From Armatimonadota bacterium (GTDB taxonomy: Bacteria; Armatimonadota; Fimbriimonadia; Fimbriimonadales; GBS-DC): DNA of 64,000 bases. Below, in pieces: positions 3,590 to 58,105 of the stretch; the stretch's first letter is position 1; every line of letters starts with the position of its first letter. Location of the stretch: positions 84,607 to 148,606 of the forward strand of contig JABWCR010000004.1 in NCBI GenBank assembly GCA_013359125.1, written 5' to 3'. A model generated the notes under the pieces. The model had not been told where the DNA came from, ran no database searches, and saw nothing but the letters and a program-made list of their open reading frames with translations. A program made the translations under genes and the position numbers.

Positions 3590-3590
3590 G

Positions 3591-4586: not shown

Positions 4587-4599
4587 GGTTCGCTGTAGG

Positions 4600-4634
4600 A
4601 TTATACCGGCGTTTAGCGGCAGGAGGAACGGATC
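4600..4634 (-). promoter_or_regulatory. candidate promoter for moaA in the 74-bp divergent intergenic region
   Basis: A perfect TATAAT on the minus strand (complement of 4600-4605) sits only about 14 nt upstream of the moaA ATG, implying a very short leader. The -35 element is weak. Confidence 0.3.
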
Positions 4635-4660
4635 GCGCGAAGAATTGGACGCTTGTAACC

Positions 4661-32492: not shown

Positions 32493-33488
32493 ATGGCGAG
32501 TCGCAACGTACCTAACGAACGACAGAGGGCCAAGAGGAAGCCCAGCCGCGCCCGCCGGGCGATCGGCATCATTGGCTGGCTCTTGGTCGCCGCATGCGGC
32601 CTCTGTTTTGGCGGCCTGATCGGATATATAGGCTTTGCCAGCGACGGCGTTGCCATGAGGACGATCTCCGCCATCGTAACGCGCGAAGCGACGCCCGCTC
32701 GGGCTTTTCCGGGACGAAACTCGATTACGATACTTGCACTCGGAGCCGATCAAGATCGCGATCGGCGAAAGCGCATCACTAACCGGAGCGCACGGTCGGA
32801 TACCATCATGGTCGTCAAAGTGGATTTCGATCGTATGCGGGCGGATGCCGTGTCGATTCCTCGCGATACGCTGGTTCGAATCCCTGGGCACGGCTGGGGA
32901 AAGGTGAACGCGGCCCATGCATTGGGCGGCGTCGAGTTGGCGGCGAAGACCGTATCCGACCTATTGGGCGAGATTCCGATCGATCATGTAGCGGTGATCG
33001 ATTATGTCGGCTTTCAGCGTCTGATCGATGCGATCGGCGGAGTCGAGCTCTATGTGGACAAGCGGCTCAAGTATGACGACAACTGGGGCGATCTGCATAT
33101 CGATCTGCAGCCCGGATTTCAGCATCTCACTGGCGAACAAGCAATGGGATTCGTCCGGTATCGGCACACGGATAGCGATTTTAAGCGCATCGAACGGCAA
33201 CAGGTCTTTGTGCAGGCTCTTAAAGATAAACTGAAGTCGCCCGGCGTGTGGGTGCGGGCCCCCGATGTGCTGAACAAGGCGTCCAAGATGGTGGCCAGTT
33301 CGCTCACTTACGAGCAGTTGTTGGCATTGGCCACATACGTTCGGTCGTTGCCGCAAGATGCAGTGCAGATGAAAACGCTGCCCGTGCGAGATGGACGGGG
33401 CACCTATCTGACAGTCGATAAAGAGGAATCAAAGAAGATCCTGAGGGAACTCAGCTTCTGGGAGTCCTACACCTACTCTAAACGATGA
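32493..33488 (+). CDS. LytR-CpsA-Psr (LCP) family cell-envelope polymer transferase
   Basis: An N-terminal TM segment followed by ILALGADQDRD...RSDTIMVVKVD...SIPRDTLVRIPG...KVNAAHALGG...IDHVAVIDYVGFQRLIDAIGGVELYV. Confidence 0.8.
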   Translation: MASRNVPNERQRAKRKPSRARRAIGIIGWLLVAACGLCFGGLIGYIGFASDGVAMRTISAIVTREATPARAFPGRNSITILALGADQDRDRRKRITNRSARSDTIMVVKVDFDRMRADAVSIPRDTLVRIPGHGWGKVNAAHALGGVELAAKTVSDLLGEIPIDHVAVIDYVGFQRLIDAIGGVELYVDKRLKYDDNWGDLHIDLQPGFQHLTGEQAMGFVRYRHTDSDFKRIERQQVFVQALKDKLKSPGVWVRAPDVLNKASKMVASSLTYEQLLALATYVRSLPQDAVQMKTLPVRDGRGTYLTVDKEESKKILRELSFWESYTYSKR

Positions 33489-34237
33489 GCCGGAAAGGGC
33501 TCACCCAGGCCGAGAAAATTGCCATCGGGGTCGGTGCCGTCATCATCCTGGCCATTCTCATCCCGGTCTACCTCACCTTGCTCGACATTCGACATACCAA
33601 CGCCTGCCAGAACAATCTGGGGCAGATTTCGAAAGCGTTTCAGTATTACGTGCTGGATAACGGCGGATCGTTGCCTTTGGCGCAGTTCGATGGCACGGAT
33701 GGGCCGGCGCTGGACAGCAAGGGCCGTCCGGTTACTTGGATGCACTCGATCAATGCCTATCTTAGGAAAGATATAGAGCAGGTCGCCGTCTGTCCTGCGG
33801 ACCCGCTGGGGGGGTCGTGCGTTCTGACGCACCCATCCGATTCGAGCAGAGAGCTGCGATCGTCGTATGGCATGGTGGCGGCGCTCAGCGGTCGAGAAGT
33901 CGCTTCCTTGCCGGCAGGAGGATCGGCTCTTATCGTAGAGAGCGTTTCGGGCGGGCAGTGGGGAACTCGCAATCATCGTCCATTGGTTGGCGGCAACGAT
34001 GGATTCTTGTTGGATTATGCGGAGGATTTCGTCTCTCGCGCAGCGGTATCGAGGATTGACGAAAAAACAGGCTGGGATGAAAACAACATGCGCTCCTTTC
34101 ATGGGCGGGGCCTCAACATCCTCTATGCCGATGGCCATGTTTCGGCCCAAAAGCCGTCCATTGCCAACCTATCGCGAGACGCAAAGGGCGATCCTTTGCC
34201 CCCTTGGGCGCCGCGCTTAAAAGCCGAAGATCGGTAA
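33485..34237 (+). CDS. pseudopilin-like H-X9-DG (DUF1559-type) protein
   Basis: N-terminal hydrophobic helix IAIGVGAVIILAILIPVYL, followed by CQNNLGQISKAFQYY. The C-terminal HGRGLNILYADGHV is the H-x9-DG motif. ATGA overlap with the LCP gene. Confidence 0.65.
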   Translation: MSRKGLTQAEKIAIGVGAVIILAILIPVYLTLLDIRHTNACQNNLGQISKAFQYYVLDNGGSLPLAQFDGTDGPALDSKGRPVTWMHSINAYLRKDIEQVAVCPADPLGGSCVLTHPSDSSRELRSSYGMVAALSGREVASLPAGGSALIVESVSGGQWGTRNHRPLVGGNDGFLLDYAEDFVSRAAVSRIDEKTGWDENNMRSFHGRGLNILYADGHVSAQKPSIANLSRDAKGDPLPPWAPRLKAEDR

Positions 34238-34252
34238 TTTTTTGGCGACCCC

Positions 34253-34282
34253 TTGACAAGCCATTAAGGTTTGTGGTACAGT
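34253..34282 (+). promoter_or_regulatory. candidate sigma70-type promoter of the molybdoenzyme operon
   Basis: TTGACA (34253-34258), an 18-nt spacer, then TACAGT (34277-34282) preceded by TGG. It lies about 80 nt upstream of the ATG at 34360. Confidence 0.45.
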
Positions 34283-34359
34283 CAGCCAAATTAAGTCAAT
34301 AGGTCAAACGGCTGGATTGACTTACAAGGCATCCAGTCCTGAGATCTAAGGAGGGAACG

Positions 34360-35052
34360 ATGCGTGTAGTAATTGCTGGAATATTGCTCTCAATGGCCGC
34401 AGGGCTCTTTGCTCAGACGGCCACCATCACCGGAAAGGTCTCCTTTTCGGGAAAGGCGCCCGCCTCGAAGGCGATCGACATGAAGGCCGATGCCAAATGC
34501 GCGGCCATCCATGGAAACAAGCCCGTCAAGCCTGAGGATTTTATCTTAAACCCCAACGGCACGCTCCGATGGTGCTTTGTCTATGTCAAAGACGGTCCGA
34601 TCCCCAAGGCGGCTCCGTCTAAGGCAACTGTCGTTCTTGACCAGCACGGTTGCACTTACGCTCCAAGGGTATTTGGAGTTGTAACCGGCCAGCCGATCGA
34701 GATTAGAAACTCCGACCCGCTGTTGCACAACGTCCACACAGTCTCCAAGGCCAACCCAACCTTCAACATTGCCCAGCCGAACAAGGGCATGAAGCGAGTG
34801 CACGTATTTATGAAGCCCGAAACGATGGTGCAATTCAAATGCGACGTGCATCCGTGGATGGGCGCCTATGCCGGCGTTGTGCCGCACGGCTTCTTCGCGG
34901 TTACGGGCGCAGATGGCAAGTTTACGATCAAAGGCCTGCCCGCCGGGACCTACACGCTAGAGGTCTGGCACGAAAAGTTGGGCAAGCAGACGATGCAGGT
35001 TACGGTCAAGGCTGGCGAGACCAAGACGGCGGACTTCGCTTACAAAAAGTAG
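34360..35052 (+). CDS. secreted cupredoxin-like (type-1 copper) protein flanked by carboxypeptidase-regulatory-like beta-sandwich segments
   Basis: Signal peptide present. Candidate Cu ligands are ...DPLLHNVH... and ...FKCDVHPWMGA, a C-x2-H-x2-M pattern as in amicyanin/pseudoazurin-type sites. The C-terminal segment is GKFTIKGLPAGTYTLEVWHEKLG. Confidence 0.65.
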   Translation: MRVVIAGILLSMAAGLFAQTATITGKVSFSGKAPASKAIDMKADAKCAAIHGNKPVKPEDFILNPNGTLRWCFVYVKDGPIPKAAPSKATVVLDQHGCTYAPRVFGVVTGQPIEIRNSDPLLHNVHTVSKANPTFNIAQPNKGMKRVHVFMKPETMVQFKCDVHPWMGAYAGVVPHGFFAVTGADGKFTIKGLPAGTYTLEVWHEKLGKQTMQVTVKAGETKTADFAYKK

Positions 35053-35070
35053 CGCCTTAGGAGGTTTGAG

Positions 35071-36588
35071 ATGACTCGGACATCGATAGCGTTTTTGACG
35101 AGCACGGCGATCGCCGGACTGCTGATGGTCGGCGTTGCGAGGGACAAGCCTTCGCAGGACGAGCTGATCGCGGAGGGCAAGGCGCTGTACGAGCAGTATT
35201 GCCTGACATGCCACGGGGCCGCAGGCGCCGGGGATGGCGAAATGGCCTATTTATCCCACCCGAAACCTCGCGATCTGACCGAAGGCGTTTATAAGGTTCG
35301 ATCGACTCAGTCGGGCAGCGTGCCCACGGACGACGACCTGTACCGAGTCATCTCGAACGGAATGCCGGGCACGTCGATGCCCGCTTGGAAGGGCGACCTG
35401 ACCAACCGACAGCGATGGGCCTTAGCCCAGTATGTCAAGAGCCTATCGCCTCGCTTCGCGACGGAAAAGCCGGAGGGCGCGCTCAGAGTGTCCGCAGTCC
35501 CCGCCGCAACGGATTCGATGCTGCAACTCGGCAAACGCATCTATGCGGCGCAGGGATGCGGCCAGTGCCACGGCGCAACGGGCAAGGGCGATGGCCCGTC
35601 CGCAAGAAACTTGCGCGATGCGAAGGGCTATCCGATCGTGCCTTACGACTTTACGCAGTCGGCGCGATTCAAGGGCGGCAGCGCTCCCAGGGACATCTAC
35701 CGCACATTTATGACCGGCATGGACGGCACGCCGATGCCCAGTTATGCAGGCACGCTAACGGACAAAGAATCTTGGGCTCTGACCCATTATGTGCTTTCCT
35801 TGGTGAGCAAAGAGCCGGCGATCCCAGACTTTGGTCACGAGATTGTTGCAGCAAGAGTATCCCGACTGCCCGACATCGCTGCGCCGATGGATTCAGTCTG
35901 GAGCGGCTCTAAGGTCTCAATTATCCCAGTAAGGCCTCTTTGGGATCGGCCTGGGGCCGTGGATCGGGTGCAGGCCAAGGCTCTGCACGATGGAAGAACG
36001 CTCCAAATCTATCTGACCTGGAAAGAGCAGAACCCCAGCGACGGATATGCGCGGGTGCAAGAATTTCGAGATGCGGTCGCCGTTCAATTCCCTGTCCGGC
36101 AGGCAACCGGCACAAAGGCCTTCTATGGGATGGGCGACGCTCAAAACCCGGTCAATGTTTGGATGTGGCGGGCGGATTGGCAGGCGGATCTTGCAAGATT
36201 CAGAGACCTGTTCGCTCTCTATCCGAACATCGCCATCGATTGGTACCCGTTCGTTACCGATCCGACCTTTGTCCCTGCATTGAGAAGAGGCAATCTGAAT
36301 GCGACGACCCTTCGCCTGACGTCCGTCGAGGATCTCAACGCGACCGGGCCATCCTCTATCACATCCCAGATCGCATCGAAGCAGAACGTTCGCGGCTTCG
36401 GAGCCTGGTACGAGGGCGCCTGGCATGTGGTGATTCAGCGCGATCTTCGAACGTCCGACGCTGAGGACGCCCAATTTGCTCCCGGAGCGGAGACGCCCAT
36501 AGCATTCGGAGTTTGGCAAGGCGCCCAGGGAGACCGGAACGGCCAGAAGTCGATCTCGATCTGGCAAACGCTGCGCTTGGAGCCATAA
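35071..36588 (+). CDS. gamma-subunit-like fusion: two class-I c-type cytochrome domains plus an EB_dh (ethylbenzene dehydrogenase gamma / haem-b) domain
   Basis: N-terminal signal/anchor present. Two CxxCH sites (CLTCHG, CGQCHG), each followed by a GM(P/D)GT.MP Met-ligand region. The C-terminal part reads ...ALHDGRTLQIYLTWKEQNPSD...AVAVQFPV...GMGDAQNPVNVWMWRADW, resembling type II DMSOR gamma subunits. Confidence 0.75.
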   Translation: MTRTSIAFLTSTAIAGLLMVGVARDKPSQDELIAEGKALYEQYCLTCHGAAGAGDGEMAYLSHPKPRDLTEGVYKVRSTQSGSVPTDDDLYRVISNGMPGTSMPAWKGDLTNRQRWALAQYVKSLSPRFATEKPEGALRVSAVPAATDSMLQLGKRIYAAQGCGQCHGATGKGDGPSARNLRDAKGYPIVPYDFTQSARFKGGSAPRDIYRTFMTGMDGTPMPSYAGTLTDKESWALTHYVLSLVSKEPAIPDFGHEIVAARVSRLPDIAAPMDSVWSGSKVSIIPVRPLWDRPGAVDRVQAKALHDGRTLQIYLTWKEQNPSDGYARVQEFRDAVAVQFPVRQATGTKAFYGMGDAQNPVNVWMWRADWQADLARFRDLFALYPNIAIDWYPFVTDPTFVPALRRGNLNATTLRLTSVEDLNATGPSSITSQIASKQNVRGFGAWYEGAWHVVIQRDLRTSDAEDAQFAPGAETPIAFGVWQGAQGDRNGQKSISIWQTLRLEP

Positions 36589-36589
36589 G

Positions 36590-37570
36590 ATGACTGCGAC
36601 TGGTACGCGAAGAGACTTCTTGAAACTGCTGATCCCGATGGCAACATCGGCGACGGAACCGGCCGTCTACTACGATCCGGAATTGTTGGAGGCTGTCGTT
36701 GGCGAAGCCATGAGACGACAAGGCAGGCTGCCCAAGTCAATGTTGCTCGAGATCGAGCGGCTATATCAGACCATCGAGCCAGAGAACCGAGACAAGGCGT
36801 TTCAATCGCTGAATCGCGAGATGTTCGAGAATCAGGGGCATCATGCCTGGCTGCTGGAGCGACTGAGAGCATTTCCAGAAGCCCTTTCAGGCATCGAAGA
36901 GAGTTTTGTCCATCGCGCTCGAACGCCGTTCGACGCTGGCGCGGAACTGCGCGACCGAAAGGACGGCGGCAAGGCGCTCTTCATCTGTTTAGAACCGACG
37001 GTCTTTGAACAGAGGATAGATGGCTTTGTCAATCACGAGCTTCAGCACATTGAAGACATCCTGAATCCTAACTTTGGGTTCTACAAGCCGCGCCCCTTGG
37101 CAGACAGTCCTGCCCGAGAAAGCCTTGTTCGGGATCGACTGAAGGCAGTCTGGGCTGCGAGCGTTGACGGAAGATTGCAGCGCCGCGGGCTGGAGCCTCT
37201 GCGCAACGAGGCCGCCAGACGCACCGAGTTCGGCGCGTTCTATCGATCATTGCCCGATGAGGCGCTACAGACAGCGTTCGACAAACTTTGGAGCGAGAAT
37301 TCGCCAAAGTTTGGCGACCTGTTGGATATGGCGCGGTCGGTTTCTGCGACGCTTGCCTGGGCGGGCATAGAGGATCGTGAGAGTTATTCAGACGATCAGA
37401 TCGATCCGATTTTGTGCCCGATTTGTCGAATGCCGTCGCCGGAGAAAGAGCTTGATTTAAGCCCGGAGATGATTGTAGAAGCCATGGGCGACGACCCCGA
37501 ATGGTTGCCCGCCTTTGGCATGTGTTCCCGATGTGCAGAGCATTACCGAGTCAGGACAGGGCAATGGTAA
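36590..37570 (+). CDS. hypothetical protein with an N-terminal RRxFLK motif, an HExxH motif and a C-terminal CxxC...CxxC zinc ribbon
   Basis: MTATGTRRDFLKLLIP... at the N-terminus. FVNHELQHIED covers H149-H153 (nt 37034-37048). The C-terminus has CPICRMPS...CSRCAEHY. The start lies 2 nt after the gamma stop. Confidence 0.5.
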   Translation: MTATGTRRDFLKLLIPMATSATEPAVYYDPELLEAVVGEAMRRQGRLPKSMLLEIERLYQTIEPENRDKAFQSLNREMFENQGHHAWLLERLRAFPEALSGIEESFVHRARTPFDAGAELRDRKDGGKALFICLEPTVFEQRIDGFVNHELQHIEDILNPNFGFYKPRPLADSPARESLVRDRLKAVWAASVDGRLQRRGLEPLRNEAARRTEFGAFYRSLPDEALQTAFDKLWSENSPKFGDLLDMARSVSATLAWAGIEDRESYSDDQIDPILCPICRMPSPEKELDLSPEMIVEAMGDDPEWLPAFGMCSRCAEHYRVRTGQW

Positions 37571-37589
37571 CCCTTGCAAGGAGAAACTC

Positions 37590-40500
37590 ATGAAATTTTC
37601 ACGTCGTCAGTTTTTGAAGACTGCCGGTTTGACAAGCGGCGCGCTGTTGCTGGCAGATAGCACTCTGGGAGGAGGGTTGCGCACGCTTCAGCCTGCTGTC
37701 AATGTTCAGAATCCTCTGAAGCATTATCCGGACCGAGGCTGGGAGCAGGTTCTTCGCGATCAGTATCGGTATGACCGAGCGTTTACCTTTGTTTGCGCGC
37801 CCAACGATACTCACAACTGTCGGCTTCGGGCGCTGGTGCGGGACGATGTGATCGTGCGCATCGAACAAAACTATGACGCGGGCCACATAGAAGCCCTCGA
37901 CGGTACCGCGACGACCGCGGCATGGAACCCCAGAGGGTGTTTGAAGGGCTTTACGTTCCATCGGCGCGTCTACAGCCCCTATCGTTTGAAGTACCCGATG
38001 ATCCGTAAAGGCTGGAAAGAGTGGGCCGACGCCGGATTTCCCGAACTGACGCCAGAGCTAAAGAAGAAGTACAAGTTTGATAGCCGAGGCTCCGATCAGT
38101 TGCTCCGAGCCGGTTGGCAAGAAGCGTCGGACTATGTCGCCCGTGCGATGGTCGCGATCTCTACCCGATACAGCGGGGAAGAAGGCGCCGCACGGCTGAA
38201 GCAACAGGGCTACGAGCCGGAGATGATCGAGGACATGGGCGGAGCCGGCACGCGCACCATGAAGTTTCGCGGCGGCATGGGGCTGCTGGGCGTTATCGGC
38301 AAGTATGGCATGTGGCGCGCCGCCAACATGGTCGCGCTGCTGGATTCCCATGTTAGGAAGGTTTCGCCTGAGCAGGCTAAGGGCGGTCGCAAGTGGTCGA
38401 ACTACACATGGCACGGCGACCAGGCGCCCGGGATGCCGTTTGTGCACGGGCTACAGGCCTCTGACGTAGACATGAATCAGTTGCGCTTTGCGCGGTTAAG
38501 CATCGCTTGCGGCACCAACATCATCGAGAACAAGATGCCCGAAGCGCACTTCTTTACCGAACTGATGGAGCGAGGCGGGCGATTGGTGGTCATCAAGCCC
38601 GAATACAGCCCGACGTCTCAGAAGGCCGACTACTGGATACCGATTCGTCCAAACACGGACGCTGCCCTGTTCTTAGGCATTACTCGTCTGATGATGGACA
38701 ACGGATGGTACGACGAGGCGTTCGTCAAGGGCTTTACCGACTTTCCACTGTTGGTTCGTGCTGACAACTTGAAGCTGCTCCGTGCAAGCGAACTCTTTTC
38801 AGATCACAAACCCTTGCTTGCTTCTGACGGCATGTCGATGAAGCGTCAGAACTTGAAGCCCGATCAGTACGAAAAGTTAGGCGATTTTGTAGTTCGGTCG
38901 GCAGATGGCTTCAAGGCGATTTCTCGCGACGACGTGGGCGGAACGATGGCGGGACGGGGAATCGATCCGACGCTGGATTGGCAGGGAAAGGCGCGCCTGG
39001 CCAACGGTCAGGAGATCGAATGCCTGACGCTTTGGACGGCTTACAAGAGGCATTTGGAGGACTACGGGCTGGATGCGGTCGCGCAGATGACAAGCTCGCC
39101 TAAGGAGCTGATCGAGCGACTGGCCAAGGAGATTTGGGACGTTACGCTCGAAGTTCGCGAGCAGGATCCTACTGCGGGCGCCGTAGCCATTCACATTGGC
39201 GAGGGGATCAACCATTGGTTTCACGCAACGTTGGCCAATCGAGCCTTCTATCTGCCATTAATGCTGACGGGAAACATCGGCAAGGTCGGGTCGGGGTGCC
39301 ATACCTGGGCCGGCAACTACAAGGGCGGTTTGTTTCAAGGGTCGCCGTGGACCGGCCCCGGCTTCCCAGGCTTCATTGCCGAAGATCCGTTCAATTTATC
39401 GCTCGATCCGGCATCGCACGGCAAAGACGTCAAGGTTCGCAAACTCTTCAAGGACGAAGAGCCTGCTTACTGGAATCATGGCGATCGACCTCTGATCGTA
39501 AACACGCCTAAGCACGGTCGAAAGGTGTTTACCGGCAAGACGCACATGCCCACGCCGACCAAGTTCCTTTGGTTCAACAACGTCAACCTGTTCAACAACG
39601 CCAAGCACGCGTACGACATGTTCTTCAACGTCAATCCAAACATCGAGTGCATCGTCTGTCAAGACGTTGAAATGAACTCGACCGTGGAGTACTCCGACGT
39701 GGTCTTTGCAGCGAACACCTGGGTCGAGTTCGAAGATTACGAAATGACCGCGTCGTGTTCGAACCCGTTTCTTCAGATATGGAACGGCGGCATCCGGCCG
39801 ATCTACGACACGAAGGACGATCTAACGATCATACGCGGCGTGTTCGAGAGCTTGGCTAAGCTCACGGGCGATAGGCGTTTTGCCGATGCCTACAAGTTCA
39901 AGGCGCCGGTCTATATTCAAAGGCTGCTCGATAGCTCGACTACGACGTTCGGATATACCTTTGCCGACATCATGGCTGGCAAATACGGCGAGCCGGGCGT
40001 TTGTCTGATGATGTTCAGAACCTATCCAAGGGAGCCGTTTTACGAGCAAGTGTTCGAGAACGAACCGTTCCACACGGCGACCGGACGGTTGCAAGCCTAT
40101 TGCGACATTCCCGAAGCCATCGAGGCAGGCGAGAACTTTATCGTGCATCGAGAAGGGCCGGAGGCCACGCCCTACCTGCCCAACGTGATCGTCAGTACAA
40201 ATCCGTATGTACGGCCCGACGACTACGGCATCTCGGCAGAGGCGATGCATTGGGACGAGCGCACCGTGCGCAACATCAAGATGCCTTGGTCGCAGGTGAA
40301 GGAAACCACAAACCCGCTCTGGGAGAAGGGCTATCGATTCTATGGCTTGACGCCCAAGGGCAGGCACCGCGTGCACAGCGGCTGGAGCATGGTCGATTGG
40401 AACCAGATATGGGAGAGCAACTTCGGCGATGCCTATCGGTTGGATCGACGCTCGCCCGGCGTAGGGGAGACCCAAATGCACATCCACCCGGACGCGGCGA

Positions 40501-41048
40501 AGGAGATGGGGATCAGCGACGGCGATTATGTTTATGTCGATGCCAACCCGATGGATAGGCCGTACCGAGGCTGGAAGCCGACCGATCCGCAATATCGAGT
40601 GGCCAGGCTGATGGTGCGGGCCCGATACAACCCGGCCTTCCCAAAACAGGTCGTGATGATCCGGCACAGCCCTTCGATCGCGACCGAGCGGAGCGTGAAA
40701 GCGCACGAAACTCGGCCTGACGGTCGCGCTCAGTCCGTCGATACGGGCTATCAGTCGAATGTGCGCTACGGCGGCCATCAGGCGCTGACCAGAAACTGGC
40801 ACATGCCGATGCACCAGACCGACACCTTGTTCCACAAGTCCAAGGCCATGGTTGCGTTTATCTTCGGCGGAGAGGCCGACAACCATGCGATCAACACGGT
40901 GCCCAAGGAGACGCTGGTCAAGATTACCAAGGCCGAGGACGGCGGACTGGGCGGCAAAGGCGTATGGAAACCGGCCACAACCGGCTTCTCGCCTGGGCGC
41001 GAGAGCGAGTTTATGCAGAGATACCTGGCCGGCGAGTTGGTCGAGTAG
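37590..41048 (+). CDS. Tat-exported molybdopterin (Mo-bisPGD) oxidoreductase alpha subunit, type II DMSO reductase family (NarG/NxrA/EbdA-like)
   Basis: The ATG at 37590 follows GGAGAA. Tat signal MKFSRRQFLKTAGLTSGALLLA. FS0-like motif C69-x3-D-x3-C77...C117. WHGDQAPGMP carries an Asp at the NarG Mo-ligand position. Also KPEYSPTSQKADYWIPIRPNTDAAL. The protein is 1152 aa. Confidence 0.85.
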   Translation: MKFSRRQFLKTAGLTSGALLLADSTLGGGLRTLQPAVNVQNPLKHYPDRGWEQVLRDQYRYDRAFTFVCAPNDTHNCRLRALVRDDVIVRIEQNYDAGHIEALDGTATTAAWNPRGCLKGFTFHRRVYSPYRLKYPMIRKGWKEWADAGFPELTPELKKKYKFDSRGSDQLLRAGWQEASDYVARAMVAISTRYSGEEGAARLKQQGYEPEMIEDMGGAGTRTMKFRGGMGLLGVIGKYGMWRAANMVALLDSHVRKVSPEQAKGGRKWSNYTWHGDQAPGMPFVHGLQASDVDMNQLRFARLSIACGTNIIENKMPEAHFFTELMERGGRLVVIKPEYSPTSQKADYWIPIRPNTDAALFLGITRLMMDNGWYDEAFVKGFTDFPLLVRADNLKLLRASELFSDHKPLLASDGMSMKRQNLKPDQYEKLGDFVVRSADGFKAISRDDVGGTMAGRGIDPTLDWQGKARLANGQEIECLTLWTAYKRHLEDYGLDAVAQMTSSPKELIERLAKEIWDVTLEVREQDPTAGAVAIHIGEGINHWFHATLANRAFYLPLMLTGNIGKVGSGCHTWAGNYKGGLFQGSPWTGPGFPGFIAEDPFNLSLDPASHGKDVKVRKLFKDEEPAYWNHGDRPLIVNTPKHGRKVFTGKTHMPTPTKFLWFNNVNLFNNAKHAYDMFFNVNPNIECIVCQDVEMNSTVEYSDVVFAANTWVEFEDYEMTASCSNPFLQIWNGGIRPIYDTKDDLTIIRGVFESLAKLTGDRRFADAYKFKAPVYIQRLLDSSTTTFGYTFADIMAGKYGEPGVCLMMFRTYPREPFYEQVFENEPFHTATGRLQAYCDIPEAIEAGENFIVHREGPEATPYLPNVIVSTNPYVRPDDYGISAEAMHWDERTVRNIKMPWSQVKETTNPLWEKGYRFYGLTPKGRHRVHSGWSMVDWNQIWESNFGDAYRLDRRSPGVGETQMHIHPDAAKEMGISDGDYVYVDANPMDRPYRGWKPTDPQYRVARLMVRARYNPAFPKQVVMIRHSPSIATERSVKAHETRPDGRAQSVDTGYQSNVRYGGHQALTRNWHMPMHQTDTLFHKSKAMVAFIFGGEADNHAINTVPKETLVKITKAEDGGLGGKGVWKPATTGFSPGRESEFMQRYLAGELVE

Positions 41049-41063
41049 ACCGAGGAGCGAATC

Positions 41064-41339
41064 ATGATAAAGCCGTTTGAAGACGACGATCCGATGGAGT
41101 TGAAGGGCGTCGAGGTCGATGCTGAAGAAGAGTGCATGACCGAGATGACGAGGGCGTTTATGGATGAGTTCGTTCGCACAGGATACTCGGACGATGAGAT
41201 TCTGCGGATGTTCCGATTACCCATCTATCATGGGCCTCACATGGTTCATCGAGCCAAGGGACCCGGCTATGTGAAGGAAATGCTGAACGAGGCGAGAGAT
41301 CGCTGGCAACCGCTATCGTACGAAGGAGATCGATCATGA
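41064..41339 (+). CDS. small acidic hypothetical protein between the alpha and beta subunits
   Basis: 91-aa ORF. It starts 13 nt after the alpha stop and its stop overlaps the beta start (ATGA). No signal peptide. The N-terminus is acidic (DDDPMELKGVEVDAEEEC). Confidence 0.45.
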   Translation: MIKPFEDDDPMELKGVEVDAEEECMTEMTRAFMDEFVRTGYSDDEILRMFRLPIYHGPHMVHRAKGPGYVKEMLNEARDRWQPLSYEGDRS

Positions 41340-42610
41340 CACAGGTGCATAATTGGCAGCTTGGACGCGAGATGTCGTATCCGTTTGAGGAGGCTCACCC
41401 CGATCGACAATTGGCCGCTGTATTTAATCTCAATCGTTGTATCGGGTGTCAGACCTGCACGATGGCCTGTAAGAGCACATGGACGTTTAGCAAAGGCCAG
41501 GAGCAGATGTGGTGGAACAACGTGGAGACCAAGCCATACGGCGGCTATCCGCAATTTTGGGACGTGAAAATTCTGAAGCTTCTTGAGGAAGAGCACGAGA
41601 AGCAGGGCGGCCAGATGGCATGGTCCGAAGACGAGGGCGGGCCGTACGGCAAGTACGAAGGGATGACGATCTTCGAAGCAGCGGACAAGCGGTATGGGCC
41701 GGAAGGACCCCAGCGCGCGCTTGGCTACCTGCCCGCCGATCACGAATGGACGGCGCCCAACATCTACGAAGACACCACTCCGAACTACGAAGGCGGCGAG
41801 TTAGGAATCAGCAAGGAGGGTTCGTCTCTTCCCGAACACAAAGCCTGGTTCTTCTATCTGGCTCGCACCTGCAATCACTGCACCTATCCGGCGTGCGTAG
41901 CGGCGTGCCCTCGCAAGGCGATCTACAAGCGCAAGGAAGACGGCATCGTGCTGATCGACCAAGATCGATGCCGCGGCTATCGAAAGTGCGTCGAAGCGTG
42001 CCCTTACAAGAAGTCGTACTACCGACCCAATACCCGAACGTCGGAAAAGTGCGTAGGATGCGTGCCATTGACCGAAGGCGCCGACCCGATCGGCGAGGGT
42101 CACCCGGTCGAATCGCGCTGCATGACGGCGTGCGTGGGAAAGATACGGCTTCAAAGCCTGGTCAAAATCAACCAAGAGACCGGCGACTGGGCCGATGACC
42201 CCGAACATCCGCTTTACTTCTTGGTCAAAAAAGAGAAGATCGCCTTGCCGCTCTACCCGCAGTTTGGGCTGGAGCCCAATCTCTACTACATTCCGCCACG
42301 ATGGGCGCCGAGGCCTTACCTGCGCCAAATGTTCGGCCCTGGGGTGGACGACGCTATTGCCAAGTACACCGCGCCTTCGCGCGAACTTTTGGCAGTGCTC
42401 CAACTCTTCCGCGCGCATCGCTTGATGATCTTCAAATACGGAATCAAAAAGGGCGAGAAGCTTTATGAGACCAAGATGCCGGATGGTCGAACGGTCGAAG
42501 TGTTTAACGACACCGTGATCGGCTATGGCCAGGACGGGCGCAAGATCGTCGAAACGCCGGTGGTCGAGCCGATCCACAAGCGGACGCCCGATCGCCTAAA
42601 CACAATTTAG
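41336..42610 (+). CDS. iron-sulfur beta subunit (NarH/NxrB/EbdB-like, 4 FeS clusters)
   Basis: CIGCQTCTMACK, CNHCTYPACVAACP, CRGYRKCVEACPY and CVGCVP...CMTACVGK ferredoxin-type motifs. A long insertion follows the first cluster, typical of the NarH family. Confidence 0.9.
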   Translation: MTQVHNWQLGREMSYPFEEAHPDRQLAAVFNLNRCIGCQTCTMACKSTWTFSKGQEQMWWNNVETKPYGGYPQFWDVKILKLLEEEHEKQGGQMAWSEDEGGPYGKYEGMTIFEAADKRYGPEGPQRALGYLPADHEWTAPNIYEDTTPNYEGGELGISKEGSSLPEHKAWFFYLARTCNHCTYPACVAACPRKAIYKRKEDGIVLIDQDRCRGYRKCVEACPYKKSYYRPNTRTSEKCVGCVPLTEGADPIGEGHPVESRCMTACVGKIRLQSLVKINQETGDWADDPEHPLYFLVKKEKIALPLYPQFGLEPNLYYIPPRWAPRPYLRQMFGPGVDDAIAKYTAPSRELLAVLQLFRAHRLMIFKYGIKKGEKLYETKMPDGRTVEVFNDTVIGYGQDGRKIVETPVVEPIHKRTPDRLNTI

Positions 42611-42620
42611 GAGGCTGAAT

Positions 42621-43346
42621 ATGACTTCAAACGCGCAGTTGGTCGACGAGGCGCTAGGGCTGGCCGTTCTGTATCGCCTGTTGGCGTCGATGGCGCTTTA
42701 TCCGGAACCTGCCAGCGTCGCTCGGTTGCGAGATGCCGATACCAAGTTGATGGTTTCCGAGGCGCTGAAAGCGATAGAGGCGGACGAACGGCTTGAACTG
42801 GAGATCTCGCGGATGTTGACAACTGCCGCGGGAATCTCGCCGATGCAGTGGCAAAGCGAGTACATATCGGTCTTCGGTCATGCAGCCAGCAAGGACTGCT
42901 CTCCCTATGCCAGCGACTACGGAGTTGGCAGCGTGTTTCAACAGGCGCAGAAGTTGGCCGATCTTAGCGCCTTTTATTCAGCGTTTGGGCTACAGACGCA
43001 ACGCGAAGAACGAGCGGACCATATCGCGGTCGAATTAGAGTTCATGGGCTATCTCTGCCATCGCAAGGCGGTCTGCATCGCAGAAACGAAATCGGACGAA
43101 GATGCCGCGCAACTGGAAGCGGCGAGAGAAGCGTTCTTGCGTCAATTCTTGGCGCCGTGGGCTTTCAGCTTTTGCGGCCTGGTGGCAAAGACGGCCGAAG
43201 CGGTCGAAAGCCAATTGTTCTTGAGTTGGAGCGGGGCTGTGGAGAGTTTGCTGGCTATGGATCGCGACCGATTGGGGATAAACGCTACCGAATCGGTCGT
43301 AAATCTACAGCCCTTGCCCCCTTGGCAACCGTGCTCTACCGATTAG
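42621..43346 (+). CDS. TorD/NarJ/DmsD-family redox-enzyme maturation chaperone (delta subunit)
   Basis: LAVLYRLLASMALYPEP...EYISVFGH...SPYASDY...ADHIAVELEFMGYL is a TorD-like helical signature. The position after the beta subunit fits. Confidence 0.7.
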   Translation: MTSNAQLVDEALGLAVLYRLLASMALYPEPASVARLRDADTKLMVSEALKAIEADERLELEISRMLTTAAGISPMQWQSEYISVFGHAASKDCSPYASDYGVGSVFQQAQKLADLSAFYSAFGLQTQREERADHIAVELEFMGYLCHRKAVCIAETKSDEDAAQLEAAREAFLRQFLAPWAFSFCGLVAKTAEAVESQLFLSWSGAVESLLAMDRDRLGINATESVVNLQPLPPWQPCSTD

Positions 43347-43470
43347 TCTAGCGGCCCGATCAGACGAAACTTTCCGACATCAGCCTTCCTCTGTTGCTAC
43401 ATCCGGCGAAATGGCTGCATACTATTCTTCGGTCAAGCGACCAAATAGAAAATCACTGGAGGCTGTAGAG

Positions 43471-44571
43471 ATGAGCAGAAAATTTGGAGTGGTAATGAAG
43501 CTGATGGTGGCGGGGGCTTTGGCCGTTGCCGCGCTGTCCTCGTTCGCGCAGGGCGATATCCGCTGTTGCACCTATAGCGTCAGGCACAACTTTAGGATCT
43601 GTCTGCCGCAGTGCCCAGTCGTCGGGGTGGAGTGGAACTGGCACGCGCAGGCATCGGCCTGGAATCCGTTAACGACCAATATCAACAGCGGCACAGCCAT
43701 ATATCCCGTGCCCAGCATGGACACGAAGTGCGCTACCGCGTTCACAGCGCAGGATTGTTCGTTCGCAACCGCCTGCGCGGCTTTCCAAGTTGATCCGATC
43801 CCCGGCACCCCCTGCATTAAGGGCTACCATCAGGCTTATGGTCGCGCTTGTGTCCGTTGCCGTCAGTTTGGCGCGGCTGCCAATTCGGCGTCGCACATCA
43901 AGATCCTTTGCGGCGCTCCCAATGCGACCGGAGCGATCTCGTGGCAGCCTGTGCTTGAAGATCGCGTGGGCGGCGGATGCGAGGTTGTGAATCACGACCC
44001 GATTTACATGAAGTACGAAGGCATCGATGGATATTTGGAAGACCGGCTTTTCGATTTGCGCGCAAGCGGGTTTAGCTGGGAAACCCAGGATTTGGACGGA
44101 GACGGTTGGGGCGATGTGGCCAATCTCGTCCCGACGCGAGGCTCTGGGATCATTAACGTCTTTGTGGGCGGCCAGACGATGACAGGGCACCACGGCCAAC
44201 TGCAGTTGGCTTATGAAGACGGCATGGTTACTAGCCTTGTGAAGACCGGGCTGTTCGAACCGTTGCCGATTCCTGGCGTAGGCCATCCCATTCCCGACGC
44301 GATCGAGGTACCGGCTTCGTTCGAGCTGCCGTTCGAGACTCCGCGAGGCATGCGCCTTCAGAGTATCGAGATCGGAGGGGACGGCAGAGGCGGCTGGTCC
44401 CCAGTAACGGGCGACGTCAATGGCGACGGCTGCGTGGACGACATCGACCTGGCGCGAGTTCTCCGGATGTTCGGTCAGAGCGGCGAACTGGCAGAAGACG
44501 TGAACGACGACGGCACAGTCGATGACGCGGACCTGGCCATCGTTCTCGAGAACTTTGGCATGGGTTGCTAA
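43471..44571 (+). CDS. secreted Cys-rich protein with a C-terminal GC-terminated dockerin-like module
   Basis: The ATG at 43471 follows GGAGG. Signal peptide ...ALAVAALSSFAQG. About 15 Cys in the first 160 aa. The C-terminus is GDVNGDGCVDDIDLARVLRMFGQSGELAEDVNDDGTVDDADLAIVLENFGMGC-stop. Confidence 0.7.
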   Translation: MSRKFGVVMKLMVAGALAVAALSSFAQGDIRCCTYSVRHNFRICLPQCPVVGVEWNWHAQASAWNPLTTNINSGTAIYPVPSMDTKCATAFTAQDCSFATACAAFQVDPIPGTPCIKGYHQAYGRACVRCRQFGAAANSASHIKILCGAPNATGAISWQPVLEDRVGGGCEVVNHDPIYMKYEGIDGYLEDRLFDLRASGFSWETQDLDGDGWGDVANLVPTRGSGIINVFVGGQTMTGHHGQLQLAYEDGMVTSLVKTGLFEPLPIPGVGHPIPDAIEVPASFELPFETPRGMRLQSIEIGGDGRGGWSPVTGDVNGDGCVDDIDLARVLRMFGQSGELAEDVNDDGTVDDADLAIVLENFGMGC

Positions 44572-44580
44572 TTAGGTAGC

Positions 44581-44624
44581 AAAAGCGCCCCGACCGAATG
44601 ACCGGTCGGGGCGCTTTTTTTTTT
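44581..44624. terminator. strong bidirectional rho-independent terminator between convergent genes
   Basis: GCGCCCCGACCG (44585-44596) pairs with CGGTCGGGGCGC (44603-44614). AAAA lies upstream and T10 downstream. Confidence 0.85.
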
Positions 44625-44636
44625 GCAATCGCTGAT

Positions 44637-45572
44637 CTACTTTCGTCGCTTGCGGAGCAAGGCAAGACCGCCCAACGCAAGCACAGCCATCGAAGAAGGC
44701 TCTGGCACGACGGTTACGTTGTCGATAAGCCCAAAGAGCAAGTGCCGAGCGTTCGGATCGGTCGACGAAGTGGCATTGATGTCGAACTGGCCGAAGAAGA
44801 TGTTGTCGCCGCCAAAGGAAGGATTGGTTACGGTGGCGATCAGTAGTCCGTCTATCTGCCAGGTAACCGTGTTTCCCAGCTTCTCGATTCTCCATCGGTG
44901 CCAGGCCATGCCGAACGTCCCGACCGCGGTGTTACCGGTCTGCTGTGGAAAGAGCGTCAGTTGGGCAGCTGGGGCAGGCACATTCCCAAATCCAGCGTAA
45001 TAAGCATGAGTGTTGTTAACCGCGGCCGCGGTGTTGCCGGCTGCATAGACGCCAGTAGCCGGAGCGATCGGGGCGCCCGGGCCATTGTAGGCTCTCACAT
45101 CGGTGGCCGAACCGCCATCGCCTGTGCCGCCAAATCCGAGGCCTGTATAGGTCGAACCAGGAAACTGCACCTGGTTGGTCGGAGCGCCAATTCCGGCCTG
45201 CGTAACCTGAGTGGAACCGCTGCCGCCGCCGGGGAACGGGCCGTTAAAGTTCTGCCAGCAATCAAAGGTCAGGACGTAATCGCCGGTGAAGCTTTCGCCG
45301 AGCGGCGATACGCTCATGCCGCTGAAGAGGCCGGTGCCTGGCGTGTTGGCCTCCATCTTCAAACCGCGAGTGCCCGTTCCGCTCGGCGCCTGCGGAATGC
45401 CAACGGTCGAGTAATCGAAGAAGAAGTTGGCAAAGCTGCCGGTGTGCGATTGGTTGAACTGCCAATTGGCCGTCGTGTCGGTCTCAAAGTCGTTGGAGTA
45501 AAGCTGAGCGGATGCGCTCGTGATCAGCAAGACGGTTGCCGCGCCTGCCGCCAAAATGTGAGCGGTTTTCAT
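44637..45572 (-). CDS. secreted PEP-CTERM-anchored protein (ConA/LamG-like beta-sandwich guess)
   Basis: Signal peptide MKTAHILAAGAATVLLITSASAQ. The C-terminus is VVPEPSSMAVLALGGLALLRKRRK. Confidence 0.8.
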   Translation of the reverse strand: MKTAHILAAGAATVLLITSASAQLYSNDFETDTTANWQFNQSHTGSFANFFFDYSTVGIPQAPSGTGTRGLKMEANTPGTGLFSGMSVSPLGESFTGDYVLTFDCWQNFNGPFPGGGSGSTQVTQAGIGAPTNQVQFPGSTYTGLGFGGTGDGGSATDVRAYNGPGAPIAPATGVYAAGNTAAAVNNTHAYYAGFGNVPAPAAQLTLFPQQTGNTAVGTFGMAWHRWRIEKLGNTVTWQIDGLLIATVTNPSFGGDNIFFGQFDINATSSTDPNARHLLFGLIDNVTVVPEPSSMAVLALGGLALLRKRRK

Positions 45573-51840: not shown

Positions 51841-51886
51841 GGCGGTCGAACGAACTAACAGCCCAAGCCAAAGTTCTCAAGCACGA
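51841..51886. repeat. 46-bp exact repeat, copy 2
   Basis: Identical to 49711-49756. It covers the last 10 codons plus the stop of gene 51855..55883 and 14 nt of its 3' flank. Confidence 0.9.
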
Positions 51887-54800
51887 GCGCAAGATCGGTG
51901 TCGTCCACTGCGCCGTCGTTGTTCAGGTCTTCTGGCAGTCCCGAACCGGTCTGACCAAATGCGGTCAGCACCAATGCGAGATCAACGTCGTCCACGCATC
52001 CGTCCAAGTTCACATCGCCGGGGATCCGAATGATCACGGGCGTGCAACGGCTGAACTCCGATGTCTCGAAGAACAGGAAGTTGACCGGGAGAAAATGGCG
52101 TCGACTCGCGGTCGTCGTTATGAGCGAGCCAACCGGCGCCAAGCCCGGATCGACATCCACACTGAAGCTGAGGATGCCGTTCGCGTCGGTCAGATCTTCT
52201 AAAATTGCCAGAGGCTGTCGTCCTTCGCCGTGGTTGCCGGGGTCGCACTGCACGTTCGAATAAAAGTAGATCGCATACCCTGTTTCAGGCAGCGCAGTCA
52301 ACCTGCCGGAAATGACTGTATCCGTGCCTGTGAAAATCGCGGAAAGAACGACAGGGAAGTTGACGATGTTGTCTTCCGGCGGATCGTCGTTGGGCGTAAC
52401 GCCATCGTCGCCAACGTCGATGCCGAGGTCGTCGTTGTTGTAAATGCGATTGCCAATGATGCCGTTGATGCGATTGTTCAGCGGTCTGGTTACGCCGTTG
52501 CGGTTGTTGAAAGCAATGCGGTTCCAGTGCGTCGAAAATACGCCGCCGACTGTGTTGTACTCGCTTATGCCACGGAATCGAACGCCGTTGAGGCCGTTTC
52601 CCAGGTCCATCGTGCCCGTGATGTCGGTGCCAATGCTGTTCAGAACCACGGCATTGCCTCCAGAGTTCTGGATTCCTTCAATGTCGCCCGTAATCTCAAT
52701 ACCGTCGAGCGTGTTTCCACTAATCACGTTGCCGCCATCAAACTGCGCGACCCCGACCGAATTGCCAGAGGAGTTGTCGATGCGAACGCCGACAAGATTA
52801 GGCATTGCGGCATTGCCAGAAATGTTGACGCCAATGTGATTGTTTCGAACCACATGGCCGCCGCCGCCCGTGATCAATACCCCGATGCCCGAATGGTTAG
52901 AGACGATATTGCGTCCCGTAACGCCTGCTCCTCCAATTTCAGACGCTCGGCTATCCTTGAGAAAGATGCCGTTCGTGGCGTTTGGAGCCGGGTCGCCGGC
53001 CTTGTTCAAGCCGATGTAATTGCCCATGATCTTGTTGCGAAGCGCCTGCGCGCCTTCGATCAGTACGCCTGACCGACCATTATTGGCAATGATGTTGCGC
53101 TCGCCGGTCTGTCCGGGCGAAACCAGACTGTCCGGCGCGTTAATGATGGCAATACCGTCAAATCCGTTGGGCCGGGAATCGACGCCGTTCGCGCCCGTCC
53201 CAACGACGTTGCCCGCAACTTGGTTGAATCCGGCGCCGTTGCCTGTAATCAAGACGCCGTACTGCTGATTGCCCGAGACGACATTGCCAGGCGGCGTTCC
53301 CGGATCGTTCGTCGATGCGCCAATAAAGTTATTAGGCGCGCCTGTAATGACTACCCCGCTCAAGTTGGCCAAGCGCGTCTGCCCATCGATCGCCACGCCG
53401 ATATAGTTGCCCAATATCTGGTTTCCCGTCGCCTGAGCGCCGTTGATCGCAACGCCATGTCCAAAATTATTGCTAAGGATGTTTCTGGCATCTGCGCCGT
53501 TACCGCCGATGATGTTGTTGGGCGCATTGGTGATCTGGATCGCATTCCCCGTATTGGGCGCGCCGTTGATTCCATCGGCCACCACTCCGATGCGATTGCC
53601 CTCAACCCGATTGCCCGAGGCGCGATTGCCCGTAATCTCAACCCCATGCGCATTCATTCCGATCACATTCATTGCGCCTTCGACCGTGCCGCCCACAATG
53701 TTGTTTGCAGCATGCTCCAAGCGAACTCCGTTTCCGATATTACGGCCCAAGAACGATCCATCCGCGTTGGTGCCGATATGGTTGCCCTGAATCTGGTTGC
53801 CCGTCGCCGGTCCAAAGCCTTGGATGAAGACGCCGTGCACGCCGTTGCCGACGACCAAATTTCGAGCAGCTGGGACTGTGCCTCCTAGGGTGTTGTTCAA
53901 GGCATCGGCCATAAACACGCCGGAGAACCCGGCGCCCATCCGCTGCGATTCGTCTCGATTGCTGCCCAATAAGTTGCCCTGCACAAGGTTGCTGGCGCCG
54001 TTCAAGATTCGCACGCTGTTGAACTCGCTGCCCGCAACAACGTTTCGAGCCCCTTCGGCCAGCCCGCCAACCGTGTTGTTTCTTGCCGTCGCCCCGACGA
54101 TAACGACCCCGATGGTGTTGCCCAGATCATCGGCGTTGCCAGGGACGCCGTCTGGGTTCGATACCATGCCCGTAGCATCCAAACCCAGATAGTTGCCTTG
54201 CACTCGGTTATTCTCGACCGTTCTGAAGCCGCCGTCCAGCATGACTCCCGCGTTGCCGTTGTCGGCGATCACGTTGCGAGCGGCTCCGGCCAATCCGCCG
54301 ATAACATTGTTCGAACCCAGCACAACGATGCCGCCCAAGCCTTCAGTCGCACGGCCATTGCCCTTAGCGCCCGAACCGAATCGGTCTATGCCAACGTAGT
54401 TGCCCTCCACAAAAGAGTGCGAGCCGCTCAGAGTAAGCCCGGTGCGGTTGAAATTGGTTATGATCAGGCCGCGGACAACGCTGTCGGAAGGTACCGTGAG
54501 GCCGTTCCCCAAGCCCGATACAAAGTGTCCATCGATCTCGATAATGGGCGTGTTCTCGCCGCCAGGTTGAGTCGAACCGTCTATGAAAACCGGCCTAACA
54601 ATATCCGGCAAGTTGGTAAACGGTTCGTACGTAAGGCCGCCCGTTACGGCAAAGTTAATCGCGTGCGAACCGGCTAGCGCATTGATCTGCATGATGGCCG
54701 CCCGGAGTGTGCAGACGCCGGTGAATCCTGACGTGGCATTGCCCGTATCGCAAATGCCGTCGGTTATATCGCCGTCCGGCAAGTCCAGCAGAAGGTTGAC

Positions 54801-58085: not shown

Positions 58086-58105
58086 GGCTAAATAATACCT
58101 CCAGG

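Follow-up and report, generated by a model that had tools for sequence, protein, structure and literature searches.

Seven consecutive genes (g1 to g7) at positions 34253-43346 of a 64,000-nt stretch of Armatimonadota DNA, the whole of which is called the window here, raise the question which substrate is converted by the molybdoenzyme they encode and in which direction the reaction runs. All genes of this interval lie on the + strand. In a sequence-only reading they had been described as a tightly packed, co-oriented set for a soluble type II dimethyl sulfoxide (DMSO) reductase-family enzyme of unknown substrate, with nitrite/nitrate interconversion as one hypothesis. All seven co-oriented open reading frames (ORFs) were found again on the + strand of the ORF list at the positions given in that reading, and the nitrite/nitrate hypothesis is supported by a match to PDB 7B04. 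With a probability of roughly 0.85, we consider the cluster to encode a periplasmic nitrite:nitrate oxidoreductase (NXR; pNXR for the periplasmic type) as known from Kuenenia, Nitrospira, and Nitrospina, a figure that applies to identity, wiring, and reversibility of the enzyme.

Identity of the enzyme

The alpha subunit encoded by g4 (37590-41048, +; 1152 amino acids) is identified as NxrA, a presumably Tat (twin-arginine translocation)-exported catalytic subunit carrying Mo-bis(molybdopterin guanine dinucleotide) (Mo-bisMGD). It matches the NxrA of K. stuttgartiensis (KsNxrA; PDB 7B04 chain B) end to end (residues 1-1152) with 1700 bits and is 62-63% identical to the genomic NxrA proteins of Kuenenia and Brocadia. 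The next-best PDB matches are perchlorate reductase (142 bits), ethylbenzene dehydrogenase (130 bits), and E. coli NarG (approximately 115 bits). Similarly, the beta subunit NxrB, encoded by g6 (41336-42610, +), matches PDB 7B04 chain A with 575 bits over residues 1-422. Considering both subunits, the runner-up families (perchlorate reductase, ethylbenzene dehydrogenase, and NarG) reach 110-210 bits.

In the Kuenenia enzyme (KsNXR), the key residues are the molybdenum ligand Asp275, the substrate-positioning Asn70, and the ligands of FS0, namely three Cys residues and Asp71; Cys67 of KsNxrA stands in place of the FS0 His of NarG and EbdA (PMC8387239). These ligands recur in the alpha subunit with an offset of +2 as Asp277, Asn72, and Cys69/Asp73/Cys77/Cys117, and are invariant or nearly so across 13 relatives. 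Asp277 (codon GAC, nt 38418-38420) is part of the motif WHGDQAP (residues 274-280), aligns with KsNxrA Asp275 at the position equivalent to NarG Asp222, and is invariant in all 13 relatives. The motif CAPNDTHNC supplies Cys69, Asp73, and Cys77 of FS0, with Cys69 replacing the His of NarG. Due to the full-length match of 1700 bits to KsNxrA and the retention of all named catalytic and cluster ligands, the substrate pair is predicted with high confidence to be nitrite/nitrate, and the earlier label of an unknown substrate can be dropped.

The N-terminus of the alpha subunit, MKFSRRQFLK at 37590, contains the twin-arginine motif RRQFLK at residues 5-10 (Pfam TAT_signal, E = 4.6e-4, just below the gathering score). 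NxrB lacks a signal peptide and is presumably co-exported bound to NxrA. Its 15 Cys residues follow the pattern 4+4+3+4, which fits three [4Fe-4S] clusters and one [3Fe-4S] cluster. Together with the Asp ligand of molybdenum, the FS0 motif, and the NarJ/TorD-type chaperone encoded by g7, this four-cluster beta subunit completes the hallmarks of the type II DMSO reductase family. On re-inspection, the family assignment, the Asp ligand, and the Tat signal noted before were all confirmed, as were the four-cluster beta subunit, the gamma subunit of EB_dh type with its dihaem cytochrome c, and the chaperone (Pfam EB_dh and Nitrate_red_del).

The gamma subunit NxrC is encoded by g2 (35071-36588, +), where it is fused to an N-terminal dihaem cytochrome c (two Pfam Cytochrom_C matches; CxxCH motifs at residues 44 and 163). 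The EB_dh domain (Pfam, 1.8e-23) covers residues approximately 295-504 and scores 116 bits against NxrC of PDB 7B04 (chain C). Met354 and Lys493 align with Met155 and Lys305, which ligate haem b in the Kuenenia NxrC (PMC8387239). None of the seven proteins contains membrane-spanning hydrophobic segments beyond the N-terminal signal peptides of g1 and g2, and no transporter gene occurs in the cluster, so that a NarI-like anchor and a transporter are missing, as had been stated before. Solubility of the enzyme, which had been taken for granted, is not established, since the 20-residue hydrophobic stretch at the N-terminus of g2 could be either a Sec signal or a signal anchor. Features of NarGHI were not observed: the cluster encodes no transmembrane protein, the alpha subunit carries a Tat signal, FS0 is bound by Cys69 instead of His, and TIGR01580 reaches 152 bits versus a cut-off of 1084.

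Members of the NxrA family number 2632 proteins at E < 1e-50 and are encoded in more than 585 genomic loci, of which the 80 best are the basis of all counts given below. The family spans Chloroflexota, Planctomycetota, Omnitrophota, Elusimicrobia, Methylomirabilota, Binatia, Acidobacteria, Nitrospinota, and one archaeal metagenome-assembled genome (MAG). The accessory gene set adjoins nxrA in Brocadia, Nitrospinota, Methylomirabilales, and dozens of further loci. Homologues adjoining nxrA were observed for g2 in 70, g3 in 48, g5 in 57, g6 in 76, and g7 in 70 out of 80 loci from many phyla, an arrangement far beyond chance.

Direction of catalysis and competing readings

In the proposed mechanism, NxrA would receive Mo-bisMGD and FS0 in the cytoplasm, aided by g7 and possibly by g3 and g5, and bind NxrB, whereupon the pair would be exported via Tat, as family knowledge suggests. 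The NxrC-dihaem c fusion (g2) and the cupredoxin (g1) would be exported via Sec. Electrons would pass from molybdenum (Asp277, with the substrate at Asn72) through FS0 and FS1-FS4 to haem b (Met354/Lys493), the two c haems, and carriers such as g1; the cofactor ligands are seen in the sequence, the path itself we infer from the related enzymes. Due to the lack of a quinol-oxidising membrane subunit, electrons would therefore be exchanged with a high-potential periplasmic pool of cytochrome c or copper proteins. The periplasmic location of the active site would make a nitrate/nitrite transporter unnecessary.

KsNXR is bidirectional in vitro, with 61 nmol/min/mg for nitrite oxidation and 1.5 umol/min/mg for nitrate reduction (PMC8387239), and Nitrospira moscoviensis has been reported to run its NXR in reverse (PMC10839748). 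By analogy with the Kuenenia enzyme, the enzyme of the window is presumably reversible as well. Carriers of the cluster include many members of anaerobic lineages such as Omnitrophota, Elusimicrobia, Syntrophobacteraceae, and Dehalococcoidia. Because of this distribution, the occurrence of the nitrate reducers Methanoperedens and Thermogutta in the same enzyme clade (PMC10732223), and an Armatimonadetes relative that thrives in an anammox reactor while every carbon-fixation pathway is absent from it (PMC7814187), we lean slightly towards respiration of nitrate to nitrite under anoxia. Nitrate respiration would draw its electrons from a bc-type complex via cytochrome c or the cupredoxin; with O2 present, nitrite oxidation to an aa3-type oxidase might serve as a supplementary electron source.

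Several points weigh against this reading as a whole. Catalytic direction cannot be inferred from sequence (PMC10732223, PMC10839748), and nitrite oxidation is the sole interpretation published for an NXR of Armatimonadetes (PMC7814187). The cupredoxins resembling kustd1699 of Kuenenia occur mostly in anammox loci (8 out of 12), which is a mild argument for nitrite oxidation. The 64-kb window and approximately 20 kb of flanks revealed neither terminal oxidases nor bc complexes, alternative complex III (ACIII), or nar, nap, or nir genes. Furthermore, the NxrA phylogeny was built by neighbour joining from 80 close relatives and contains neither Nitrospira references nor an outgroup, and the roles proposed for g3 and g5 derive solely from synteny, the structure predictions being unusable.

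The best surviving alternative, at somewhat less than even odds, is a heterotrophic (mixotrophic) nitrite oxidiser, in which NXR would convert nitrite to nitrate and deliver the electrons via dihaem c and cupredoxin to an aa3-type oxidase at trace O2. It contests only the lean in direction and not the identity of the enzyme. The same proposal was made for the Armatimonadetes member Ca. Nitrosymbiomonas proteolyticus from an anammox reactor (PMC7814187), but the claim is based on gene presence alone, the genome is devoid of a carbon-fixation pathway, and conditions in the reactors range from anoxic to micro-oxic. The cupredoxin of the kustd1699 type is common mainly to anammox bacteria, in which it is abundant and whose NXR oxidises nitrite, and the retained Met/Lys ligation of haem b is of the kind that the Kuenenia study ties to a high redox potential (PMC8387239); on the other hand, the in-vitro rate of nitrate reduction by KsNXR is about 25 times its rate of nitrite oxidation. 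Likewise, aa3-type oxidases are reported in an Armatimonadota MAG of another reactor (PMC9909701), whereas no oxidase genes were seen in the window and its flanks. Carbon-fixation genes were not seen there either, the flanks consisting of flagellar and housekeeping genes.

Turnover of another substrate (e.g., chlorate, perchlorate, selenate, dimethyl sulfide, or alkylbenzene), as in other soluble periplasmic type II enzymes, is very improbable. The alpha-beta-gamma-delta architecture with a soluble gamma subunit of EB_dh type is indeed shared with these enzymes, and TIGR03479 (DMSO_red_II_alp), TIGR03478, TIGR03477, and TIGR03482 are the best curated NCBIfam models for the alpha, beta, gamma, and delta subunits, respectively. 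All four scores are nevertheless far below the cut-offs (297.8 bits versus 984.75 in case of the alpha subunit). Compared to the 1700 bits for NxrA, PcrA and EbdA amount to approximately 130-140 bits, the NXR-specific FS0 with three Cys and one Asp is conserved along with the substrate Asn, and accessory genes of the cld, ser, and ebd types are absent from the window.

That the cluster is mis-binned or recently transferred anammox (Brocadia) DNA is effectively refuted: Armatimonadota relatives of the genome (relatives, not the sample of this MAG) were described from anammox reactors, and g1, g3, and g7 have Brocadia/Kuenenia counterparts, but the cluster is situated in a 426-kb contig of uniform 57% GC content with Armatimonadota housekeeping genes, its NxrA is just 62-63% identical to those of Brocadia and Kuenenia and groups with Armatimonadota/CSP1-3 relatives (93/100 bootstraps), the gene order differs, and g5 was not found in anammox loci.

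The grouping stems from a neighbour-joining tree (100 bootstraps) of the 80 closest genomic relatives, including anammox bacteria and Nitrospinota. NxrA of the window is joined there by an Armatimonadota MAG, by Ca. Fervidifonticultor (locus L002) of the phylum Sysuimicrobiota/CSP1-3, a neighbour of Armatimonadota, and by an unclassified MAG, while the anammox clade is separate in 100/100 bootstraps; the nearest NxrA relatives are approximately 70% identical. The cluster proteins, NUL81790-NUL81795, are annotated as 'Armatimonadetes bacterium' (contig JAPKFX010000002.1, GCA_026646355.1). Tree placement and contig context therefore exclude contamination by, or recent transfer from, a co-resident Brocadia, and the nxr cluster is a resident gene set of Armatimonadota.

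One locus of the collection belongs to a Hydrothermarchaeaceae archaeon MAG (JAZFTU010000008.1, L015 3083-10622) and encodes NxrC, NxrA (65% identical to that of the window), NxrB, the chaperone, and a homologue of g3. This cluster either was transferred between domains or results from mis-binning; for Nitrososphaerales, a comparable case was described in an aquifer study (PMC9562985).

The dihaem fusion, the accessory proteins, and the surroundings

For the pNXR assigned here, the dihaem module of g2 offers a lead on the redox partner. The physiological redox partner of NxrC was left unidentified by the Kuenenia structural study (PMC8387239). Residues approximately 30-250 of g2 match PDB 6H5L chain B with 217 bits and 47% identity over 219 residues. 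6H5L is a hydroxylamine oxidoreductase (HAO)-like enzyme of Kuenenia, and the dihaem partner of the HAO-like enzyme is listed as kustc0457 (PMC6423088); chain B is thus most likely Kustc0457, the partner of the HAO-like nitrite reductase Kustc0458. Compared to the fused modules of other phyla, the module of g2 shows 54% identity in Methylomirabilales, 48% in Nitrospinota, and 43% in Brocadia, and is thus as close to the stand-alone Kustc0457 as to these (43-54%). Full-length dihaem::NxrC fusions occur in 34 out of 80 loci. This hints at a Kustc0457-type dihaem cytochrome as the natural partner of NxrC, a lead and not a finding.

The gene g1 (34360-35052, +) is predicted to encode a secreted type-1 copper protein (cupredoxin) with a Sec-type signal peptide and a conserved set of copper ligands composed of two His residues, Cys161, and Met167 (C-x2-H-x2-M). 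In Pfam, only CarboxypepD_reg is recognised (residues 180-227, profile positions 32-80) and no cupredoxin is called. A profile of the 12-member family, however, matches copper nitrite reductase (5e-8), blue copper protein (1.3e-6), and amicyanin (4e-5), which together with the ligand set bears out the cupredoxin assignment made from the sequence. The N-terminal strand ATITGKVSFSG resembles the start of CarboxypepD_reg, and the same layout is found in the Brocadia and Kuenenia homologues, so g1 looks like a cupredoxin inserted in a CarboxypepD_reg-like beta-sandwich. Homologues of g1 directly follow nxrA in the Brocadia loci. With matches in 12 out of 80 loci, 8 of which are anammox loci, this type of cupredoxin is a less common addition to the module. 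The assembly chaperone g7 (42621-43346, +) belongs to the NarJ/TorD family of type II DMSO reductases (Pfam Nitrate_red_del, 2.5e-21; TIGR03482, 5.6e-22).

Two genes belong to uncharacterised families with conserved synteny. The protein encoded by g3 (36590-37570, +) combines an HExxH motif (HELQH at residue 149) with a Cys4 zinc ribbon (CPIC at 276, CSRC at 312), and its homologues conserve R, HExxHxxD, W, DxR, G, CPxC, W, CxxC, and Y. The protein encoded by g5 (41064-41339, +) is predicted to be cytoplasmic, consists of 91 amino acids, and has an isoelectric point of 4.69; its family lacks Cys residues and a signal peptide and conserves DDPMEL.GV...EMA....EEF.R.G...LF.NPFY. Both proteins thus agree with their earlier description as an HExxH/zinc-ribbon protein and a 91-residue acidic protein. 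They accompany nxrAB across more than 10 phyla, and each of the 57 homologues of g5 is located between nxrA and nxrB, at most 1.6 kb downstream of nxrA. In the Brocadiaceae/Kuenenia (anammox) loci, g5 was not detected.

With the families built from the 48 and 57 syntenic homologues in the collected loci, neither g3 nor g5 gave a significant match to Pfam, NCBIfam, or PDB, be it as single sequence or as family profile. Faint metallopeptidase matches were obtained in profile searches for two g3 family members only, and a word-indexed homologue search with g3 and g5 returned only the proteins themselves and one match of 31%. AlphaFold2 models were too poor for a fold search, with a predicted local distance difference test (pLDDT) score of 65 and three helices for g5 (single sequence) and a pLDDT of 42 for g3 (two sequences).

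Residues 1-25 of g3 (36590-36665) contain TRRDFLK, a perfect twin-arginine consensus. The ATG is preceded by a GGAG site and lies 1 nt past the g2 stop codon, whereas NCBI places the start 10 codons downstream. As a Tat signal the motif was rejected: it is followed by only about 9 weakly hydrophobic residues, most of the 47 syntenic homologues start near residue 26, and the twin-arginine motif is not conserved among them. Chance, a chaperone decoy, or a Tat signal confined to this lineage could explain the motif, and g3 is treated as cytoplasmic.

Based on synteny, we propose that g3 may act as an NXR maturation factor and g5 as an assembly or escort factor. It is tempting to speculate that both represent dedicated, phylum-spanning families for maturation and escort of pNXR and that the dihaem fusion reveals the electron entry or exit partner of NxrC in the manner of a 'Rosetta stone'; we consider this possible rather than probable.

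The intergenic gaps from g1 to g7 comprise 18, 1, 19, 15, -4, and 10 nt, with an overlap of 4 nt between the g5 stop and the nxrB start. GGAG-type ribosome-binding sites precede most of the cluster genes. Upstream of g1, a candidate sigma-70-like promoter with TG extension (TTGACA-18 nt-TACAGT; 34253-34282, +) was found by consensus match only, the number of such sites in the region not exceeding the shuffled expectation. Directly upstream of this promoter region, a DUF1559 protein is encoded (33485-34237, +) which has no homologue in related loci. The DUF1559 domain is known from prepilin-like proteins, which are abundant in Planctomycetes.

No terminator-like hairpin occurs directly 3' of g7, the first strong terminator after the cluster being located at 44581-44618, 3' of a dockerin-domain ORF (43411-44571, +). 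Due to the fact that no terminator separates this ORF from g7, it was first considered as an eighth operon member, but was rejected with homologues in 0 out of 80 loci; transcription past g7 into it is probably unrelated read-through. It is one of several genes for secreted dockerin, PEP-CTERM, FG-GAP, or DUF3466 proteins, the others being situated on the - strand (44637-45572, 51855-55883, and 56952-58550).

The rest of the window contains housekeeping genes, molybdenum cofactor (Moco) biosynthesis genes, and many genes for secreted dockerin or PEP-CTERM proteins. Encoded 9 kb upstream of the cluster (21800-25198, -) is a protein of 1132 amino acids with BTAD, AAA/NB-ARC, and TPR domains, a large transcriptional regulator of the STAND type. 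The Moco biosynthesis genes are located 30 kb upstream (2666-4679, -) and encode a MoaC::MoaB-like fusion of 307 and a MoaA radical-SAM protein of 362 amino acids. In an Rfam scan of the whole window no family was matched, and hence no Moco riboswitch. Directly past the end of the window, a flagellar block (flgB/C-like, fliE, fliG, fliH, fliI, and fliJ) is found on contig JAPKFX010000002.1 (L081 13709-21800), and the flanks covered showed no respiratory genes.

Comparison with known systems

NXR, a reversible enzyme, accounts for almost all of the nitrate formed on Earth. Several studies describe homologues from numerous phyla outside the nitrifiers (PMC9562985, PMC10732223, PMC11604079), and with an Armatimonadetes genome containing nxrAB published in 2020 (PMC7814187), both the enzyme type and its presence in Armatimonadota are already known. 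In the literature searched, no description was found of g3 and g5 as conserved NXR-linked families, of the breadth of the NxrC-dihaem fusion, or of the 47% identity of the fused module to the stand-alone Kustc0457. In heterotrophs of anammox and wastewater reactors, NXR homologues would either feed anammox by converting nitrate to nitrite or compete with it by converting nitrite to nitrate. The linkage of g3 and g5 and the Kustc0457-like module provide testable leads on assembly and redox partner of NXR, which leave the identity of the enzyme unaffected. If true, the 'Rosetta stone' would imply a direct electron route in anammox bacteria from NXR to Kustc0457 and the nitrite reductase Kustc0458, a route left open by the Kuenenia structural study (PMC8387239). 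Furthermore, the clean and compact cluster of seven genes could be employed as the minimal set when the enzyme is expressed heterologously.

In Kuenenia, kustd1700, kustd1703, and kustd1704 encode NxrA, NxrB, and NxrC, respectively. To judge from gene order rather than direct alignment, g1, g3, and g7 would be the counterparts of kustd1699, kustd1701, and kustd1702, which are listed as 'hypothetical' or 'unknown' and of which the first is abundant in the proteome and the latter two were undetected (PMC6423088). Common to the Kuenenia NXR (kustd1699-kustd1713) and the window are the Asp ligand of molybdenum, the substrate Asn, FS0 with three Cys and one Asp, an NxrB with 15 Cys, the Met/Lys-ligated haem b in NxrC, the Tat signal, and the absence of a NarI-type anchor from the catalytic complex, as well as the inferred counterparts for cupredoxin, HExxH protein, and chaperone. 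The clusters differ in gene order and in size, with 7 genes in the window and 15 in Kuenenia. The NxrC of the window is itself the dihaem fusion and no separate stand-alone NxrC is present, while none of the seven genes corresponds to the CydA-like kustd1712 or to the additional genes for mono- and tetrahaem cytochromes in the anammox cluster, no search aimed at NXR-T (kustd1705, a monohaem four-helix bundle) being part of this comparison.

A dihaem c::EB_dh fusion is also part of the Brocadia clusters, where cytochromes, a 529-residue fusion, further cytochromes, a stand-alone NxrC, NxrB, the chaperone, the g3 homologue, NxrA, and the g1 homologue follow each other. These loci agree with the statement in the sequence-only reading that anammox-type nxr clusters contain additional ORFs together with haem c and blue-copper genes. 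That reading had also envisaged that the alpha subunit might fall into a clade of characterised enzymes with an identical operon: to judge by sequence similarity, it does belong to the pNXR family and shares the accessory genes, but gene order, fusion, and g5 differ. In contrast to the anammox bacteria, the host is a heterotrophic member of Armatimonadota, and among the annotated ORFs of the window the anammox genes hzs and hdh were not found. Kustc0457, finally, stands alone and associates with an octahaem enzyme, whereas the related module of g2 is fused to NxrC.

Compared to NarGHI and the Nitrobacter-type cytoplasmic NXR, the enzyme of the window likewise belongs to the type II family and shares the Asp ligand of molybdenum, the four-cluster beta subunit, the NarJ-type chaperone, and, as predicted, the nitrate/nitrite chemistry. 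It differs by its predicted Tat export, by the Cys/Asp ligation of FS0 as opposed to the His of NarG, and by the lack of a NarK transporter. The gamma subunit of NarGHI is the dihaem b membrane protein NarI, and that of the window a putatively soluble EB_dh haem b protein fused to a cytochrome c. With EbdABC (2IVF) and PcrAB (4YDD), the Tat-exported alpha-beta(-gamma) layout, the EB_dh-type gamma subunit with Met/Lys-ligated haem b, and the delta chaperone are shared, but the alpha subunits are only distantly similar (130-142 bits) and the FS0 ligands differ.

The Nitrospira and Nitrospina nitrifiers possess an enzyme of the same family, but the host of the window is not a known chemolithoautotrophic nitrifier; Nitrospira loci are not among the 80 best loci. 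Ca. Nitrosymbiomonas proteolyticus, which stems from an anammox reactor and was called a nitrite oxidiser on account of nxrAB (Okubo et al. 2020, PMC7814187), is also a heterotroph without a carbon-fixation pathway and belongs to the same phylum. It represents a different genome of 2.8 Mb with a GC content of 61.1% versus 57% here, and its accessory genes are not described in the paper. In the nearest Armatimonadota relative, an unfused NxrC comes after nxrA-g5-nxrB-g7-g3. A Nitrospinota MAG (locus L006) contains the six core genes of the window in the order g3-nxrA-g5-nxrB-g7-fusion, which is likewise found in a Methylomirabilales MAG, and the window differs from the Nitrospinota locus by the additional cupredoxin gene. 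Thus the window contains a widespread pNXR module in compact form.

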